The notes below the pieces were generated by a model that was given only the letters and a program-made list of their open reading frames with translations, was not told where the DNA came from and ran no database searches. From NCBI GenBank assembly GCA_944391705.1, contig CALXUN010000003.1, forward strand, positions 26,208-90,207: a stretch of 64,000 nt of DNA, written 5' to 3'. The DNA is from an uncultured Alphaproteobacteria bacterium (GTDB lineage: Bacteria; Pseudomonadota; Alphaproteobacteria; RF32; CAG-239). The position numbers and the translations under genes are program-made. Below are positions 4,971 to 9,584 of the stretch, piece after piece; position 1 is the stretch's first letter, and each line of letters starts with the position of its first letter.

Positions 4971-5702
4971 ATGATGCTTAAAACATTATACCAGTTTGGA
5001 GAATTTGTCTTGTCACATTATGTTCATAAGTGTTACAAAACCGGCAACACCCCGGATAAGCTGATTTTTTTTCTGCACGGCTATAACGGCTGCATTGATG
5101 ATATTGATTATGCCGCCTGCATGCTTAAAGCCAAACTTAATAATGCCTGGCTGATTTTGCCGCAATCAGACCAAACTTGTGAAAAAAATCCGCAAAAAAA
5201 ACAATGGTACAGCCTGTTGGAAGCAGACCCCGAAAATTTGCGCCGCAATCCGCAGACTTCTGTTTCCCGGATTATGGATATTTATGACAAAACCGGAGAA
5301 AGCTTGTTAAAGGTTAGTCAAACCCTTAACCGGGAACTTGATGAATTGCAAAAAAAATATGGTATTGATGACAATAAAACATATATCATGGGGTTTTCAC
5401 AAGGCGCCATGCTGGCAATTTTTATGTCCCTGACACGCCAAAATCCGGTCAAAACCTGTTTTGCTTTATCCGGAGTTGTTGCCGGCAAAAATATACTGGA
5501 GCAAAATTTAAAAGCCAGGCCAAAAGTGTGGATGTTTCACGGCAAAGATGACTTATCCGTACAATATAAAACTCTGGAATACTCTCTTTCCTGGCTTAAA
5601 CAACATGGAATTGAAACCAAAGCTTTTGAATTTGACGGACTGGCTCACCGCATGACCGAAGAAGAAATGGACATTATCTCCCAAGAAATTTTACAAAACT
5701 GA
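4971..5702 (+). CDS. phospholipase/carboxylesterase-family alpha/beta hydrolase
   Basis: FLHGYNG..., the GFSQGAM nucleophile elbow (GxSxG), and a downstream D...H region fit the esterase/phospholipase family. Start moved to the internal MMLKTLYQ at 4971. Confidence 0.7.
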   Translation: MMLKTLYQFGEFVLSHYVHKCYKTGNTPDKLIFFLHGYNGCIDDIDYAACMLKAKLNNAWLILPQSDQTCEKNPQKKQWYSLLEADPENLRRNPQTSVSRIMDIYDKTGESLLKVSQTLNRELDELQKKYGIDDNKTYIMGFSQGAMLAIFMSLTRQNPVKTCFALSGVVAGKNILEQNLKARPKVWMFHGKDDLSVQYKTLEYSLSWLKQHGIETKAFEFDGLAHRMTEEEMDIISQEILQN

Positions 5703-5791
5703 CAGCCCTGCCCGTATTTGTTTTTCTCAACAGTCAAGACTTGTTTTAGCAGCTAAAGCATCTATATCAAAAATCATGAAGGAGAAAAATC

Positions 5792-5857
5792 ATGAAAATT
5801 TGGCATTGGATTATCATTATTGTTTTCATTTTCGCCATAGCAATCACTTTTTTTTAA
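5792..5857 (+). CDS. mini-ORF encoding a 21-aa hydrophobic peptide (MKIWHWIIIIVFIFAIAITFF)
   Basis: AAGGAG lies 8 nt upstream of the ATG. Single predicted TM helix. Not in the ORF track because it is under 60 aa. Confidence 0.35.
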   Translation: MKIWHWIIIIVFIFAIAITFF

Positions 5858-5876
5858 TTAAAAAACGGCACAAAAT

Positions 5877-5957
5877 ATGTTTTGGAAACAAAAACACATA
5901 ATATTTGTTTTATTAATTGCCGCCGTTACCGCCGCGGCAATGGCCTTTTTTAATTAA
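5877..5957 (+). CDS. mini-ORF encoding a 26-aa hydrophobic peptide (MFWKQKHIIFVLLIAAVTAAAMAFFN)
   Basis: Sits immediately downstream of the first mini-ORF. Same architecture (basic/aromatic N-terminus, one TM helix, FF/FFN end). Weak RBS. Confidence 0.3.
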   Translation: MFWKQKHIIFVLLIAAVTAAAMAFFN

Positions 5958-6050
5958 ACCGTCTGTCGGGAAAATCTTTAAAAACTGCATTATATTAACT
6001 CCGTTGTTTTATAAAAAGTCATCATAATTTTTAAAAAATAAAATTTGGGC

Positions 6051-6079
6051 TTGACACATCGGTTAAAAAAGCGTATACA
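6051..6079 (+). promoter_or_regulatory. sigma70-like promoter for the tRNA (TTGACA-17 bp-TATACA)
   Basis: TTGACA at 6051-6056, a 17-nt spacer, then TATACA at 6074-6079. This is ~30 nt upstream of the mature tRNA 5' end. Confidence 0.5.
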
Positions 6080-6110
6080 CAAGCCAACTTAACAAGATAA
6101 CTATACTTAT

Positions 6111-6187
<77 letters not shown>

Positions 6188-6273
6188 GTTGTGAAAGAGG
6201 AAGTTTATACTTCCTCTTTTTTCATATCCAGAATACATTGAAAAGTTAAAGGAACCGCGGACTTCATCTTTTA

Positions 6274-6372
6274 TTTTGATGGTCGCGCCCTATTCTCCAG
6301 TATCTTTGTTTTTTTTGCCAAAATCGGTTCAAAACACCCCAAATATATACTTTTTTGAAGGTCTGAACAGCC
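6274..6372. repeat. left copy of the 99-bp direct repeat
   Basis: Matches 14544-14642 with one extra T in a T-run and one C/T difference. The flanks diverge immediately beyond ...gaacagcc. Confidence 0.9.
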
Positions 6373-6577
6373 CAAACAACGCCCTTCAAGAGATTACCAT
6401 GTTTTTATTGTTTCCACAGGCGCTTTTTGACCAAACTTCCTCTTTTGGTTCTTTTTGTATAAGAGGCAATTATATTGATACAAATATTTTTCTTTTAATT
6501 TCAATCTGATGCGTTTTTTTGAAAATTTTTGGAAACGGTTTTTGATTTTATACGGGTGATCCTGTCGGAGGTTCAAA

Positions 6578-6730
6578 ATGACAGACATTCAAAAAATCAT
6601 ACAACTTTTACTGCCGGAACTTTTGGCTTTGATTGATGGAAAAAATAGTCCGGATTTGTTGCAGAAAGGACTGGATAACAAGAGAATAAAGAGCATTCAT
6701 GTTGTTGAGAAAGGAGTTGAAAATGGTGGA
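6578..6730 (+). CDS. small ORF (50 aa) upstream of and overlapping the DUF2924 gene
   Basis: GGAGG lies 7 nt upstream of the ATG. Encodes MTDIQKIIQLLLPELLALIDGKNSPDLLQKGLDNKRIKSIHVVEKGVENGGN. Not in the ORF track. Confidence 0.3.
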
Positions 6731-7136
6731 AACTGATGTTTTACGGCTCAACGATATGAGTGTTGGCGAGTTAAAAGAAATGTGGCGGCAATATTTTGAC
6801 AGCGAGCCGATTTGGAAAACCAAGCGTTTTTATATTCCCAGACTTGCCTATCGAATGCAGGAACTTGCCTATGGCGGCGTTCCGGAACATATTAAAAGCC
6901 TATTGCTTGGCAAAACAGTTTTGAAACACGCCGAGGACAACGATGGCACGTGCCTTCCTCCGGTTGGAACCCGTCTGGTTAAGACCTACCGCGGAAAAGA
7001 ATATAATGTTATTGTTTCTACCGCCGGCTTTCAATTTGAGGGGATTTATTACAAAAGTCTGTCCGCGGTTGCTTTAAAAATCACGGGCAAACGAATTTCC
7101 GGACGCTTTTTCTTTGGATTGGGAGAGAATAAATGA
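6723..7136 (+). CDS. DUF2924-family protein (typical partner of large serine recombinases)
   Basis: Start MVETDVLRLNDMSVGELKEMWRQYFD... with an AAGGAG RBS. The 3' end overlaps the recombinase start (ATGA). Confidence 0.7.
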   Translation: MVETDVLRLNDMSVGELKEMWRQYFDSEPIWKTKRFYIPRLAYRMQELAYGGVPEHIKSLLLGKTVLKHAEDNDGTCLPPVGTRLVKTYRGKEYNVIVSTAGFQFEGIYYKSLSAVALKITGKRISGRFFFGLGENK

Positions 7137-7938
7137 AAACCATACGATGTGCCGTTTATACCCGAAAATCAACTGAAGATGGTCTGGAAAAAGAATTTAA
7201 CACGCTGGAAGCGCAACGGGAATCCGGCGAAAACTACATTAAAAGCCAGGCTTATCAAGGCTGGGAAATCATCCCCACCCATTATGACGATGGCGGTTAT
7301 TCCGGTGGCACATTGAAACGTCCGGCTTTGCAACAGCTTTTAAAGGATGTTGAGGCTGGAATGGTTGATATGATTGTTGTTTATAAAATCGACAGGCTGA
7401 CACGTTCGCTGATTGATTTTTCAAAACTTGTTGAAATTTTTGACCGTAATCAATGTTCTTTTGTGTCAGTGACGCAGAATTTTAACACTTATGATTCCAT
7501 GGGGCGCCTGACGCTGAATGTTTTACTTTCTTTTGCTCAATTTGAGCGGGAGGTTATTACCGAACGTATCCGGGATAAAGTGGACGCTTCCAAAAAGAAG
7601 GGCATGTGGATAGGCTTTTGCCGGCTGTCCGCGCTCCCAAATACCGGTGTTGTCTGCCGGATATTATCTACACGCCGCAGGAAATTGTTTTTATGGATAA
7701 GCGTCCGCTTAAAGTCCGTCCGAATCAGGAGCAGATATCTTTATGGAAACAGGTGATGCTGGAGTGGCTGCCCATATTATCGGTTGATGAACGCCGGCTG
7801 GTTTGGAAAAGAGCCAACCGTATTCCGTGGAAACTTCTTTGCCGGGAGTTTGGATTATGCAAAAGTAATTTATGTGCCAGGCATTCCAAGGCCTTGATGA
7901 AAATTGAGTTCTTTCTCAAAGGATGTAAAAATGTCTAG
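7133..7938 (+). pseudogene. large serine recombinase, frameshifted and 3'-truncated
   Basis: The N-terminal catalytic domain is intact (YTRKST..., the S nucleophile region, VYKIDRLTRS, ...KKKGMWIG). The reading then moves across two other frames (the frame at 7660-7938 encodes ...RPLKVRPNQEQISLWKQVMLEWL, the recombinase-domain helix). It stops after about 270 codons in total, whereas large serine recombinases run to about 500. Confidence 0.7.
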
Positions 7939-8103
7939 GACATCTTAGCTATAGACACTTTTGTGAAAAAGCCTTATTAATGAGGATATAATCAGGGACG
8001 AAGTATGAAAGCGTCCCTTTTTATGTTTTTTATTGACTTTTTGAAATTTAAGTTCTAAGGGAGATATAAATAAAAATTTTTATGTTTCACCATTAAAATT
8101 ATT

Positions 8104-8646
8104 TTGCGTATGAAAGATGTAAGACCAAAAATCAAACAGCTGATTAGGAATTTTCCAGTTCCGGCATGGGATCCAAATCGACACTGTATCGATTTGCCGC
8201 GAGGTGATGCACCCGATATTCCATTCTGTCATTATACCCCTTTAAAAACGTTTTTCCATCGAGGAAATAAATTTGAAGTCTTGGATTTCAAGTATGACTA
8301 CAGTGGAACACATCTGGAGCCAATATTGCGGATTACAATTGACGGCGTCATGTACCATGTTGCAACGTGTTCCCAATGGGGTGAAGAACTCCTGTATGAA
8401 ATTTTCTTCTGCAAATGTAGCGATCTTCCTAATGAAATGGAACTTCAATACACGGTAAAAGAGCCTCACGAAATATTTGATATTTCGGTTACGGGAACGG
8501 TAGAAATTCATCACGAGTACAGAAGTGATCACCAAAAACACTTGGATACAAAAGATTCTGATGTTATTGAGTTCTTTCAGAACTTGATAAATCTATGCCG
8601 TGATTTTTATCTTGCCAACAAGGCGGAACTGGATTCGATGCTTTAA
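8104..8646 (+). CDS. hypothetical protein (180 aa)
   Basis: ORF with no recognisable motif. Sits immediately upstream of the MetK-like gene. Confidence 0.5.
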   Translation: MRMKDVRPKIKQLIRNFPVPAWDPNRHCIDLPRGDAPDIPFCHYTPLKTFFHRGNKFEVLDFKYDYSGTHLEPILRITIDGVMYHVATCSQWGEELLYEIFFCKCSDLPNEMELQYTVKEPHEIFDISVTGTVEIHHEYRSDHQKHLDTKDSDVIEFFQNLINLCRDFYLANKAELDSML

Positions 8647-8717
8647 TGCTTAATCTGCTCTTTTCCTCTGCATTCAAGATGCAGGGGATTTTTTTTATGC
8701 AAGAAAGGAAATATGCA

Positions 8718-9584
8718 ATGATTAAAACAGCGGAAGCGGTGTCGCTTGGACACCCTGACAAAATGGCGGATTATATTTCGTCTTATATTTTAGACAGGAT
8801 GATTGAACAAGACGCGGCGGTCAAATATGCCGTTGAAGTAATGGTAAAAGATAATACGGTTGTGTTGGGCGGTGAAATCACGGGTGATGTAAACCTGGCA
8901 AGAATTAATTTTTATGTTACCGAAGCGCTGGCGGAAATCGGGTACGATAAGTTTTACAGCCATCGTTGGGGAAATTACGCCATTAATCCCGAGAAACTGC
9001 AAATTATCAATCTTATCGGCAAGCAGTCGGCAGATATTTCACAAGGAGTTGAACAAGACGGCTGGGGTGATCAGGGGGTATTTGTCGGTTACGCTTGTCA
9101 AGGTACGGGCAACATCAGCCGCGAACAATATCTGGCCAAAAAATTATGCAACGCTTTATATGAGTATGCTTTGCAAAACATCCACCTGGGCATTGACATC
9201 AAAACGCAGATTACACTTAATGAGCTTGGCGGTGTGGAAACGGCGGTTGTGGCTGTTCCGATGCTTAAAGATGTTGACCTGACGACTTTTATTGTTTTGA
9301 CGCTGGGAGAGGAGCCGGAAAATATTATTGTCAATGGCACGGGAACATATAAATATCATTCATCCGTGGCCGATTGCGGCGTGGCCGGTCGAAAGCTTGC
9401 GTGCGATTTTTATGGAACGGCTTGCCCGATCGGCGGCGGAAGTCCATGGACAAAGGATGCCAGCAAAGCTGACGTAACACTTAATTTTTATGCCCGTAAA
9501 CTGGCCTTGGAATATCTGCAAGACAATGACGAGTGTTTTGTTTACCTTTCATCTTGTATCGGCCGGGATTTCAACATTGCTTAA
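8718..9584 (+). CDS. divergent, C-terminally shortened S-adenosylmethionine synthetase (MetK)-like protein
   Basis: GHPDKMADYISSYILD aligns with the MetK GHPDKIADQISDAVLD. GGEITG, IGKQSADISQGV, GWGDQGVFVGYA and ...DCGVAGRKLACDFYG..GGGSPWTKDASKADVTLNFYARKLA align with the MetK GAGDQGLMFGYA and [37 protein letters not shown] blocks. It is about 290 aa against about 385 and lacks the C-terminal ~80 residues. AAGGAA RBS. Confidence 0.75.
   Translation: MIKTAEAVSLGHPDKMADYISSYILDRMIEQDAAVKYAVEVMVKDNTVVLGGEITGDVNLARINFYVTEALAEIGYDKFYSHRWGNYAINPEKLQIINLIGKQSADISQGVEQDGWGDQGVFVGYACQGTGNISREQYLAKKLCNALYEYALQNIHLGIDIKTQITLNELGGVETAVVAVPMLKDVDLTTFIVLTLGEEPENIIVNGTGTYKYHSSVADCGVAGRKLACDFYGTACPIGGGSPWTKDASKADVTLNFYARKLALEYLQDNDECFVYLSSCIGRDFNIA

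Follow-up and report, generated by a model that had tools for sequence, protein, structure and literature searches.

Is a short, divergent S-adenosylmethionine (SAM) synthetase gene on mobile DNA an active enzyme, a regulator, a decoy, or what is left of a longer gene? The question was raised by a sequence-only reading of the window (the whole 64-kb stretch of alphaproteobacterial DNA analysed here), which described a C-terminally truncated MetK paralog converging on a toxin-like gene. The anatomy of the locus points to an inactive relic. We suggest, with a probability of roughly 85%, that window positions 6376-14645 are a wrecked temperate phage of gut Alphaproteobacteria lying beside tRNA-Met, and that the 288-aa MetK is 3'-truncated and most likely dead. 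This apparent paralog, with its seeming convergence on a toxin gene, is a deletion scar in a decaying prophage, best annotated as a pseudogene remnant.

The MetK-like product and its compact family

The listed open reading frames at the locus are 8104..8646 (+), 8646..9584 (+) and 9549..10652 (-). The 312-aa reading from 8646 is an in-frame extension upstream of the conserved MetK start, ATG 8718 (MIKTAEAV...), which gives a product of 288 aa; the gene has an intact start codon and an AGGAA-type ribosome-binding site. All motif blocks quoted in the sequence-only reading are present in the translation. Pfam finds each of the three S-AdoMet synthetase domains in the product with significant scores: PF00438 at E=1.9e-21 over nearly its whole length, PF02772 at E=5.7e-07 (positions 3-59 of 120) and PF02773 at E=6.7e-10 (positions 4-73 of 138), the M and C domains being covered in part only. 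It also matches the NCBIfam metK model TIGR01034 (E=8e-43, model positions 3-300 of 377) and, together with the motif blocks, these matches confirm a MetK homolog. The TIGR01034 score of 146.8 bits lies below the equivalog cutoff of 309.4 bits, and compact MetKs that fail this cutoff are named only as a 'domain-containing protein'.

Strong divergence does not set this copy apart but is usual throughout a large compact-MetK family, in which full-length relatives of 332-334 aa are 95-98% identical to the window protein. Proteins on Caudoviricetes records ('S adenosylmethionine synthase [Caudoviricetes sp.]') are 96-98% identical to it, and PHROG 1569, listed there as 'unknown function', matches with E=1.2e-66 and 226 bits over positions 1-282 of 346 only. 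The PHROG members and the Caudoviricetes proteins belong to the same family as the window gene, which differs from the PHROG members in being a truncated remnant in a dead prophage and not a working phage gene. The compact family shares with E. coli MetK the homology of the three-domain S-AdoMet synthetase fold but is ~50 aa shorter, residues being missing at three places: past the gating loop, within region 190-230 and at the C-terminal tail. Unlike either, the window copy is without everything past the 'SYAIG' strand. The best solved relative is the dimeric, divergent MetK of Campylobacter jejuni (4LE5, E=1e-40), compared with 2e-27 for E. coli (1FUG/1P7L). Structural statements on MetK rest on alignment to solved MetKs; an AlphaFold2 model of a full-length family member (P0002) reached a pLDDT of 41 from a shallow alignment of 27 sequences at >=77% identity.

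All known ligand and catalytic residues are intact in the window copy. Sixteen are invariant in 53 family members and the window copy, and H14, D16, K17, E42, D118, D163, K165, D238, R244, K245, K265, D266, K269 and D271 (E. coli numbering) are identical throughout. The E. coli reference used for numbering agrees with the HMMER alignment at residues 6-315. We infer that the intact compact family is a catalytically competent SAM synthetase. That all known catalytic residues are kept within the 283 retained codons is, taken by itself, an observation against a relic.

Anatomy of the element and its two deletion joints

The features of the locus are as follows (evidence in brackets).

6111-6187, plus strand: tRNA-Met (CAT) (ARAGORN, Rfam, blastn)
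6274-6375: left ~101-bp direct repeat, att-like (repeat search; single-copy in the empty-site strain L081)
6578-7136, plus strand: intact left-arm genes for a 52-aa product (6578-6736) and for a DUF2924 protein (6699/6723-7136) (Pfam, tblastn)
7133-7756, plus strand: large serine recombinase stub (Pfam, tblastn)
7604-7614: deletion joint 1, ~2.8 kb lost (blastn; 11-bp overlap of two homology blocks)
7606-7938, plus strand: DUF6362 fragment, residues 13-122 of 126 (Pfam, tblastn)
7854-8690, plus strand: mosaic moron-like segment (blastn, consensus scan)
8110-8646, plus strand: conserved orphan ORF, 178 aa, intact (five homolog clusters, 60-99% identity; alignment)
8718-9584, plus strand: truncated compact-MetK gene (codons 1-283, 8718-9566, homologous to the 331-356-aa family)
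9567-9584, plus strand: last five codons and stop of the MetK-like gene, foreign sequence
9564-9567: deletion joint 2, ~32 kb lost (nucleotide comparison, protein tails, intact viral contig coordinates)
9549-10652, minus strand: N-terminal RTX stub, ~365 codons, no RTX repeats left (homolog alignment)
10645-11451, minus strand: 268-aa membrane protein, upstream operon partner of the RTX gene (tblastn, 59% identity to L165 1-795)
11856-14636: decayed cargo (Pfam, repeats, composition, blastn)
14545-14645: right ~101-bp direct repeat, end of the inserted element (repeat search)

The ~101-bp repeats bound an insertion of 8.27 kb, and the repeat is single-copy at the empty site of L081, a strain of the same species. 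The MetK-like gene does lie in a mobile-element remnant, as had been proposed. Homology to related prophage loci starts at 6107/6108, at tRNA-Met (blastn), and the window matches these prophages in three blocks, of which 6108-7614 corresponds to 5226-6732 and 7604-7853 to 9524-9773 of a related phage (L002), while the last ends exactly at 9566.

The left-arm proteins are 100% and 98.5% identical to those of the same phage (tblastn). The recombinase is homologous only over codons 1-161 of 556 (to 7615), and the remainder of its frame is out-of-context read-through; Pfam matches the Resolvase N-terminal domain alone in a gene whose intact homologs encode 543-556 aa. Lost at joint 1 are the recombinase C-terminus, a GerE-like gene, a 68-aa ORF, a DUF6291 gene and the start of the DUF6362 gene. 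The ~2.8-kb deletion at this joint took most of the recombinase.

Between the DUF6362 fragment and MetK, the mosaic segment (7854..8690) is absent from the closest phages, which have 200 bp there instead. In it the 178-aa ORF follows a promoter-like site (7963-7992) and precedes a terminator-like hairpin with a T-run (8664-8696; consensus scan). The upstream frame had been read as 180 aa; it exists and is conserved, but in all homologs the start aligns with ATG 8110, giving 178 aa. Related prophages carry this ORF at the same position, ahead of MetK. Profile searches of its product found no Pfam, NCBIfam, PHROG or PADLOC match, the viral-contig pattern scan returned nothing for it, and its AlphaFold2 model (pLDDT 73.8) had no fold match. 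It is an independent, intact orphan moron cassette.

The toxin-like gene downstream is itself a fragment. Homologs that align from residue 1 of the convergent ORF are RTX proteins of 691-1767 aa, and an intact viral homolog, 67% identical, has 2,215 aa and 23 HemolysinCabind stretches. The arrangement before the damage is seen in the IMG/VR contig UViG_3300029619_000255 (40.8 kb), which has a 94%-identical MetK near its left end and, at its right end on the opposite strand, the 2,215-aa RTX gene with the 268-aa membrane partner, adjoining a phage tail gene. Prophages of this kind carry a 2,215-aa RTX protein as cargo. The RTX/T1SS remnant was also considered as host DNA abutting the prophage, but this is rejected: both the empty site and the intact viral contig show that the remnant belongs to the element.

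At joint 2, MetK homology to the phages stops at 9566/9567 (nucleotide comparison) and minus-strand RTX homology ends at ~9558-9566, with a CGG/CCG triplet possibly shared, so that MetK codon 283 is fused, antisense, to RTX codon ~365. The window protein ends ...SSCIGR|DFNIA*, whereas family members read ...SSCIGRSELP and run on for another 45 residues. On the intact viral contig, ~32.2 kb separate the two breakpoints. A single internal deletion of ~32 kb made this fusion, and accounts for the truncation of both MetK and RTX as well as for their 'overlap'. The 36-bp convergent overlap is present at 9549-9584 but is not a designed arrangement: both stubs read across the joint to chance stop codons. 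The MetK did not evolve to be short; its length is the scar of the same prophage deletion that cut the toxin-like gene, and about 85% of the phage gene, its front part, is left.

The truncation itself is real, although the loss of ~80 residues holds only against E. coli MetK and amounts to ~48-50 against the compact family (331-356 aa, ending ...LNKP[VI][FY]A.LC[RK].G). In alignment the missing residues correspond to positions ~305-362 of E. coli MetK, within its C-terminal domain; profile positions 283-346 are absent, the alignment ends at the equivalent of E. coli ~304, and a complete C-terminal domain (E. coli ~269-383) is not present. All 47 complete genome-locus copies have at least 331 aa, and all 80 viral-locus frames, measured between stops without trimming to a start, stay open for 1,002 nt or more; across both sets the window copy is the only short MetK not cut by a contig end. 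In the domain layout of MetK, on which the argument for lost stability leans, the missing stretch belongs to the C-terminal domain. Losing these residues would most likely keep the protein from forming a stable, active dimer. In MetK the homodimer is the obligatory functional unit, and its large interface holds the active sites (PMC9202080).

The rest of the element is also decaying. When 31 phage proteins were searched against the 64-kb window (tblastn), six were found (the 52-aa ORF, DUF2924, recombinase 1-161, DUF6362 13-122, a homolog of the 177-aa phage ORF and MetK 1-283), and no terminase, portal, capsid or tail homolog was among them. Att-type repeats and an empty site are there, as in a functional prophage; intact recombinase, packaging and structural genes are not. 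The low-GC (27-32%) cargo on the right contains two fragments with Peptidase_C39 only (11856-12380 and 13968-14636), which share ~82-85% DNA identity, and, on the minus strand, a 317-aa membrane ORF (12609-13562).

Given that dN/dS between the window copy and intact copies (0.05-0.13) is the same as among intact copies (0.045-0.14), the truncation appears recent, although the ratio does not separate recent neutrality from continued constraint and dates nothing past 'recent'. Relaxed selection on the window MetK was considered and set aside, dN/dS being indistinguishable from that of intact copies. Rfam searches at gathering thresholds covered the window and the regions preceding phage and chromosomal compact metK genes; they returned tRNAs only and no riboswitch.

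Rival accounts of the truncated gene

The retained 283 codons contain no internal stop and no frameshift, and with start codon and ribosome-binding site intact a truncated MetK protein could still be made. It is conceivable, though unlikely, that this protein is expressed as a decoy or dominant-negative subunit, using the large dimer interface to pair with the compact MetK of the host (~70-75% identical) and lowering SAM synthesis. Such a decoy would modulate SAM-dependent defence or methylation, functionally like the phage T3 SAMase, which also inhibits MetK. It is at the dimer interface that MetK active sites form (PMC9202080), every interface-proximal catalytic residue is kept, phage interference with MetK has precedent (bioRxiv 10.1101/2023.02.27.530186), and the allele occurs in three assemblies from different sequence records. 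However, the truncation coincides exactly with the joint of a 32-kb deletion that also destroys the RTX gene, in an element that is decaying as a whole, which fits accident and not design. More than 125 loci yielded no second truncated copy, a terminator-like hairpin stands upstream of the gene, another strain of the species lacks the element, and the three carriers are 99.9-100% identical, hence no case of independent retention. We give even less credence to a domesticated form of this idea, in which the stub survives as a 'poison subunit' that forms dead-end heterodimers with the host compact MetK; if true, it would throttle SAM synthesis and so tune SAM-dependent restriction, BREX or methylation in a gut alphaproteobacterium. 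The likeness to T3 SAMase (a SAM lyase) is that of a phage function acting on the host SAM pool in restriction-modification/BREX conflict (bioRxiv 10.1101/2023.02.27.530186); the two differ in fold and in direction, SAM destruction and MetK inhibition against SAM synthesis, so the analogy would be functional only.

A still-active, unusually short accessory SAM synthetase for the host is more doubtful again. Its catalytic residues are intact, and the whole family is shorter than E. coli MetK to begin with. In Streptococcus agalactiae, the MetK of prophage 12/111phiA is described as 135 aa shorter than E. coli MetK, is claimed to be functional despite truncation and is reported to affect host phenotypes (PMC8223999), from which it follows that truncated forms are not necessarily inert. 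That gene is likewise prophage-borne, shorter than the bacterial enzyme and near restriction-modification-type genes (PMC8223999), but the likeness is one of description: phage and host are unrelated, and its shortness is natural as reported, whereas the window copy is short by a deletion scar. Moreover, all other family members have the 48-50 residues missing here, the PF02773 match stops at position 73 of 138, and the ORF ends in five foreign codons. The 288-aa ORF is therefore probably an inactive prophage relic and not a specialised short enzyme.

Two further accounts carry next to no weight. A metagenome assembly chimera, with an intact gene in the real genome, might be suspected given that the window apparently comes from a metagenomic scaffold and that assemblies of other samples break near the left end of the phage. 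It is rejected because the joint recurs in three assemblies, each of a separate sequence record: L071 (100% identical), L072 (99.94%) and L073 (100%); the joint is found with both flanks in ENA ERZ28614322 scaffold_80, ENA ERZ24773258 NODE_3362 (7 mismatches in 12 kb) and Logan ERR4096375. Nor is there more than a sliver of probability that the gene is the organism's housekeeping metK, short by nature. Compact MetK genes do adjoin core genes in related MAGs, but this copy falls among the phage MetKs with 100/100 bootstrap support, has phage genes on either side, lies inside an insertion missing from a same-species strain, and is truncated compared with chromosomal copies. The sequence-only reading had named intact catalytic residues together with conserved core-gene neighbours as the pattern that would speak against it; the residues are indeed intact, but the neighbours are phage genes, and it was right that this is not the housekeeping gene.

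Intact relatives and the neighbouring methyltransferase

SAM-synthetase-like genes had been thought uncommon on mobile DNA, but the compact family is found on 176 IMG/VR contigs and has a PHROG of its own (1569). Compact MetK is common in temperate phages of gut Alphaproteobacteria. Seven virome papers have metK along with 'auxiliary metabolic' in their full text. In complete prophages the 95-98% identical full-length MetKs occupy the same gene order, in brief serine recombinase, DUF6362, MetK, ParB-DNA methyltransferase and terminase. From the left, intact relatives have tRNA-Met, the 52-aa ORF, DUF2924, the large serine recombinase, GerE-like, DUF6291 and DUF6362 genes, an optional moron slot, compact MetK, a second optional moron slot, a ParB_N-N6/N4 DNA methyltransferase, terminase, lambda-like head and tail genes, and the opposite-strand 2,215-aa RTX gene and membrane partner before the right end. 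At the window, the DUF6362 fragment is present upstream of MetK; the ParB-methyltransferase is absent from the whole window because its position falls in the deleted segment.

Compact MetK also occurs in core chromosomal contexts of related gut Alphaproteobacteria MAGs, next to MotAB and HisRS, to MutY, MscS and Skp, or to MlaC and a GT2 glycosyltransferase, and this type looks like the chromosomal SAM synthetase of a gut Alphaproteobacteria clade. In a neighbour-joining tree the window copy falls in the phage clade with 100/100 bootstrap support, and a second capture has 70/100. Phages probably took compact MetK from the chromosomal form of the host clade, possibly more than once.

During infection or induction, an intact phage MetK would convert ATP and methionine into SAM, and we suspect that the likeliest client is the neighbouring phage DNA methyltransferase, which may protect phage DNA from restriction. 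Gene neighbourhood suggests such a coupling of SAM supply to methylation. The ParB_N-N6_N4 methyltransferase lies 0.1-3.9 kb downstream of MetK wherever that stretch is on the contig, in 21 of 21 close viral loci and in most phage-context genome loci (the others being short contigs or contig ends). Against such a coupling, the +/-6 kb around MetK contains no ParB-methyltransferase-like ORF at 33 of the 80 viral loci. That intact compact MetK and the adjacent ParB-DNA methyltransferase may form a self-sufficient phage methylation module is a weaker proposal, but a more probable one than the poison subunit considered above. If true, SAM supply and methylase travel together in a pairing that recurs across host phyla. 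Our literature search returned no paper that characterises the compact MetK family biochemically or describes the MetK/ParB-methyltransferase pairing. That phages co-carry a SAM supply for self-methylation is a testable hypothesis, and the same pairing is seen in distant Lentisphaerota and Kiritimatiellota elements, where the MetKs are 46-48% identical and the methyltransferase lies immediately upstream of MetK, adjoining a Prim-Pol gene.

A truncated SAM synthetase gene and its compact family

The feature is what remains of a phage-borne compact SAM synthetase (MetK) gene that has lost its 3' end, and it lies in the wreck of a prophage. The three open reading frames recognized here by the sequence-only reading are real, as is the 36-bp overlap:

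8104..8646, + strand, upstream ORF
8646..9584, + strand, MetK-like ORF
9549..10652, - strand, convergent ORF, overlapping the MetK-like ORF by 36 bp

Comparison with homologs places the MetK-like start codon at ATG 8718 (MIKTAEAV..., 288 aa), preceded by an AGGAA-type ribosome-binding site. The product matches PF00438 (Pfam, 1.9e-21) and the first part only of PF02772 (positions 3-59 of 120) and PF02773 (positions 4-73 of 138). It covers model positions 3-300 of 377 of the NCBIfam metK equivalog, scoring 146.8 bits against a cutoff of 309.4, and positions 1-282 only of the 346 in PHROG 1569 (E=1.2e-66), a profile listed as 'unknown function'. Campylobacter jejuni MetK, a divergent and dimeric enzyme (4LE5, E=1e-40), is the closest solved relative, the other best being E. 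coli MetK (E=2e-27). The C-terminal truncation noticed earlier is confirmed: the window protein ends ...ECFVYLSSCIGR followed by DFNIA and the stop codon, and its relatives run on beyond the same point (...SSCIGRSELPNAVVKTVKHG...LNKPVFARLCRNGLI) for 48-50 extra residues. When 53 members of the family, the most distant at 46% identity, are aligned with E. coli MetK, all 16 ligand or catalytic positions checked (H14, D16, K17, E42, E55, Q98, D118, D163, K165, D238, R244, K245, K265, D266, K269 and D271) are invariant, including in the window copy.

A protein search returned 3,267 matches among 5.8 billion proteins. The best 120 of these are almost all 331-337 aa long, and in the top ones identity to the window protein is 95-98%; where a source is named, which is seldom, it is 'S adenosylmethionine synthase [Caudoviricetes sp.]' or 'methionine adenosyltransferase domain-containing protein [Alphaproteobacteria bacterium]'. 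The window gene is thus a member of a large compact-MetK family, exceptional in its length only. The family is ~50 aa shorter than E. coli MetK, through loop deletions and a shorter tail. Strong divergence had been taken as a peculiarity of this paralog, but given that the whole family shares it (53-member alignment, 95-98% identical relatives), it is a family trait and not decay of the window copy. The NCBI name 'methionine adenosyltransferase domain-containing protein' is attached to the family, and the score below the TIGR01034 cutoff was obtained for the truncated window copy.

The compact family is borne by 176 IMG/VR contigs and also occurs on chromosomes, beside MotA/MotB and HisRS (L031), MutY, MscS and Skp (L045), or MlaC, a GT2 glycosyltransferase and a low-molecular-weight phosphatase (L037), with no phage proteins found within +/-10 kb of MetK at these three loci. 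These core-gene-flanked copies, from gut Alphaproteobacteria MAGs, are 333-336 aa long (position 10001-11011 in each) and may be the housekeeping enzyme there. Neighbour-joining recovers the window's phage clade as monophyletic (100/100 bootstrap), with no resolved position among the chromosomal copies, and a second phage lineage (L035/L040) clusters with chromosomal copies (70/100). The most economical interpretation is capture of a host-type SAM synthetase by phages, possibly on more than one occasion.

Deletion scars and the boundaries of the inserted element

The window prophage aligns by blastn with the homologous locus L002 in three collinear blocks:

Window 6108-7614 = L002 5226-6732
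Window 7604-7853 = L002 9524-9773
Window 8691-9566 = L002 9974-10849

The first gap between blocks is a ~2.8-kb deletion. At its joint (7604-7614) the flanking homology blocks overlap by 11 bp, and the serine recombinase is cut to codons 1-161 of 556 and fused to a DUF6362 fragment. Positions 7854-8690 are a mosaic replacement bearing a 178-aa ORF. Homology to the phages ends abruptly at 9566, where the window reads ...TGTATCGGCCGG/GATTTCAAC... and the phages ...TGTATCGGCCGG/TCAG.... When 31 phage proteins were searched against the whole window by tblastn, six were found (orf52, DUF2924, recombinase 1-161, DUF6362 13-122, an orf177 homolog and MetK 1-283); no methyltransferase, terminase or structural genes are left.

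The convergent 'toxin-like' gene is the other side of MetK's deletion scar. In an exhaustive HMMER search, the proteins that align with this 367-aa ORF from residue 1 are far longer (P0150, 691 aa; P0152, 1,767 aa; P0153, 1,419 aa) and have RTX GGxGxD repeats farther along, and the similarity of the window ORF reaches ~residue 365, which is the joint. A scan of viral contigs gave one relative, on the 40.8-kb IMG/VR contig UViG_3300029619_000255. Near its left end this contig has a MetK of 94% identity; at its right end, on the opposite strand, are a homolog of the window's 268-aa membrane protein and a 2,215-aa RTX protein with 23 HemolysinCabind and 8 HCBP_related stretches, after which comes a Phage-tail_3 gene. 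In its coordinates the breakpoints lie at ~6,737 and ~38,933, and therefore ~32.2 kb is missing from the window. The overlap of 36 bp stands as described, but it consists of two stubs meeting at one joint (9566/9567), each read into the other's antisense until a stop codon. A CGG/CCG triplet at 9564-9566 may be shared microhomology. In intact relatives of the window prophage (L165 1-7446, the right end of this contig; window 9549-11451), the 2,215-aa RTX protein and the ~265-aa membrane protein are right-arm cargo beside the tail gene; the RTX cargo could possibly be a lysogenic-conversion toxin or adhesin in gut Alphaproteobacteria.

The joint is real, as three assemblies drawn from separate sequence records all contain the exact 312-aa product (the reading from 8646) together with its flanks:

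ENA ERZ28614322 scaffold_80, 19.6 kb at 100% identity, the probable source of the window
ENA ERZ24773258 NODE_3362, 7 mismatches in 12 kb
Logan ERR4096375, same product and flanks

In L081 (ERZ16268129), a strain from a different sample, the left-flank esterase protein is identical but the element is absent: its tRNA-Met region (equivalent to window 5647-6375) runs directly into window 14545-14814. A ~101-bp segment is single in this strain (11328-11428) and present twice in the window (6274-6375 and 14545-14645). Given this empty site and the duplication, the 8.27 kb are one inserted element with att-like repeats, and the mobile-element remnant proposed earlier is borne out. The element consists of the left arm of the phage, both stubs, one membrane ORF and a pair of Peptidase_C39-only fragments, and is no longer able to move on its own. 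A duplication of ~101 bp is of unexpected length where the sole recombinase is a large serine recombinase. The Peptidase_C39-only fragments (11856-12380 and 13968-14636, ~82-85% identical in DNA) resemble the N-termini, now decayed, of ABC exporters of the T1SS or bacteriocin type. The stretch that holds them has a GC content of 27-32% and also contains two unannotated ORFs for multi-pass membrane proteins (10645-11451 and 12609-13562). At 14783-15826, just right of the insertion, a Fic and winged-HTH protein matches the PADLOC candidate defence family PDC-S72 (E=3e-120) and also SoFic (1.7e-10); in the empty-site strain its gene is host DNA directly beside the att site.

Activity of the truncated copy

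Over the retained 283 codons, dN/dS between the stub and intact relatives is 0.05-0.13, and between intact copies 0.045-0.14. Given this match, nearly all of the divergence is older than the truncation; the event is therefore recent, and dN/dS is silent on selection since. The residues missing from the stub align with E. coli MetK ~305-362, which we take to be a strand and helices of the C-terminal domain in the published structure (Takusagawa et al. 1996). MetK works only as a homodimer, whose large flat interface holds both active sites (PMC9202080). With these residues gone and the homodimer obligatory, we infer that the stub would not fold or assemble into an active enzyme. A structure model of the compact family reached a pLDDT of 41, too low for use. 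A terminator-like hairpin with a T-run (8664-8696) lies just upstream of the stub. There is a small probability that the stub has a residual role, for example as a poison subunit, given that it keeps all catalytic residues and its translation signals, and that phenotypic effects were reported for a shortened prophage MetK in Streptococcus agalactiae (PMC8223999). The remnant is most likely inactive.

Overall, the sequence-only reading observed the gene correctly, and its interpretation is borne out in part only. Virus-encoded metK is a kind already known, of which the window copy is a broken new instance, and the value lies mostly in what was learned at the family level, not in this copy.

Intact phages, the methyltransferase pairing and the 178-aa gene

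Gene order in full-length relatives was taken from exact-protein look-ups. It is conserved and runs from a 52-aa ORF, DUF2924, a large serine recombinase (543-556 aa), a GerE-like gene, a 68-aa ORF, DUF6291 and DUF6362 to MetK, then through a variable slot, a ParB_N-N6_N4 DNA methyltransferase and small genes to a GpA-type terminase, gpW, portal, S49 protease, HDPD and major capsid protein. This setting is a temperate phage. The hosts are uncultured gut and rumen Alphaproteobacteria, such as 'Azospirillum sp. 51_20'. Slots on both sides of MetK hold cargo that varies by phage (BstA, Fic/RhuM, GmrSD, a C5 methylase or unknown genes), and this swapping between related prophages looks like a defence or anti-defence hotspot. 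The slots (L064-L070, L006-L010, L001-L005) also hold the 178-aa orphan and unknown 309- and 168-aa genes.

The most constant neighbour of compact MetK is the ParB_N-N6_N4 methyltransferase gene. It lies 0.1-3.9 kb downstream wherever the contig reaches, in 21/21 close viral loci and most phage-context genome loci, the others being short contigs or contig ends and therefore uninformative; overall it was found in 47 of 80 viral loci. In distant elements (46-48% identical MetK; Victivallaceae, Lentisphaeria and Kiritimatiellae MAGs) the methyltransferase directly adjoins MetK, with a Prim-Pol gene nearby, and thus the pairing recurs across host phyla in another gene order. In these elements (L059 5792-11005, L060-L062) MetK is immediately downstream of the methyltransferase, whose stop overlaps the MetK start in L059. 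We infer, from guilt by association only, that intact phage MetK tops up SAM for fast methylation of phage DNA; a literature search found no paper testing this role.

The ORF upstream of the stub starts, by homolog comparison, at ATG 8110 (178 aa). Its homologs form five clusters (60-99% identity), and 81 of the 178 alignment columns never vary, among them APDIPFCHY and a CKC motif; this conservation marks it as a genuine gene. Profile searches of its product matched no Pfam, NCBIfam, PHROG or PADLOC family. AlphaFold predicts (pLDDT 73.8, pTM 0.76) an antiparallel sheet of eight strands and, after it, two helices at the C-terminus, a structure for which a fold search gave no significant match in PDB or BFVD. 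The window cassette has a promoter-like site and a terminator-like hairpin of its own. Two related prophage lineages carry the gene in the slot between DUF6362 and MetK, which it shares with BstA in one of them. A non-phage copy found in metagenomes from cattle and humans has 86.6% DNA identity, with homology only over 8075-8646. It adjoins ThiF, and ~1.7 kb away lies a tRNA-Met that matches the window's exactly. The 178-aa ORF behaves as a mobile moron and not as an obligate partner of MetK. The non-phage loci (L074 1594-2165; L075 34-115 and 1782-2353), where the gene sits beside an unannotated 430-aa gene and ThiF, may represent a further remnant at an attachment site of the same kind.
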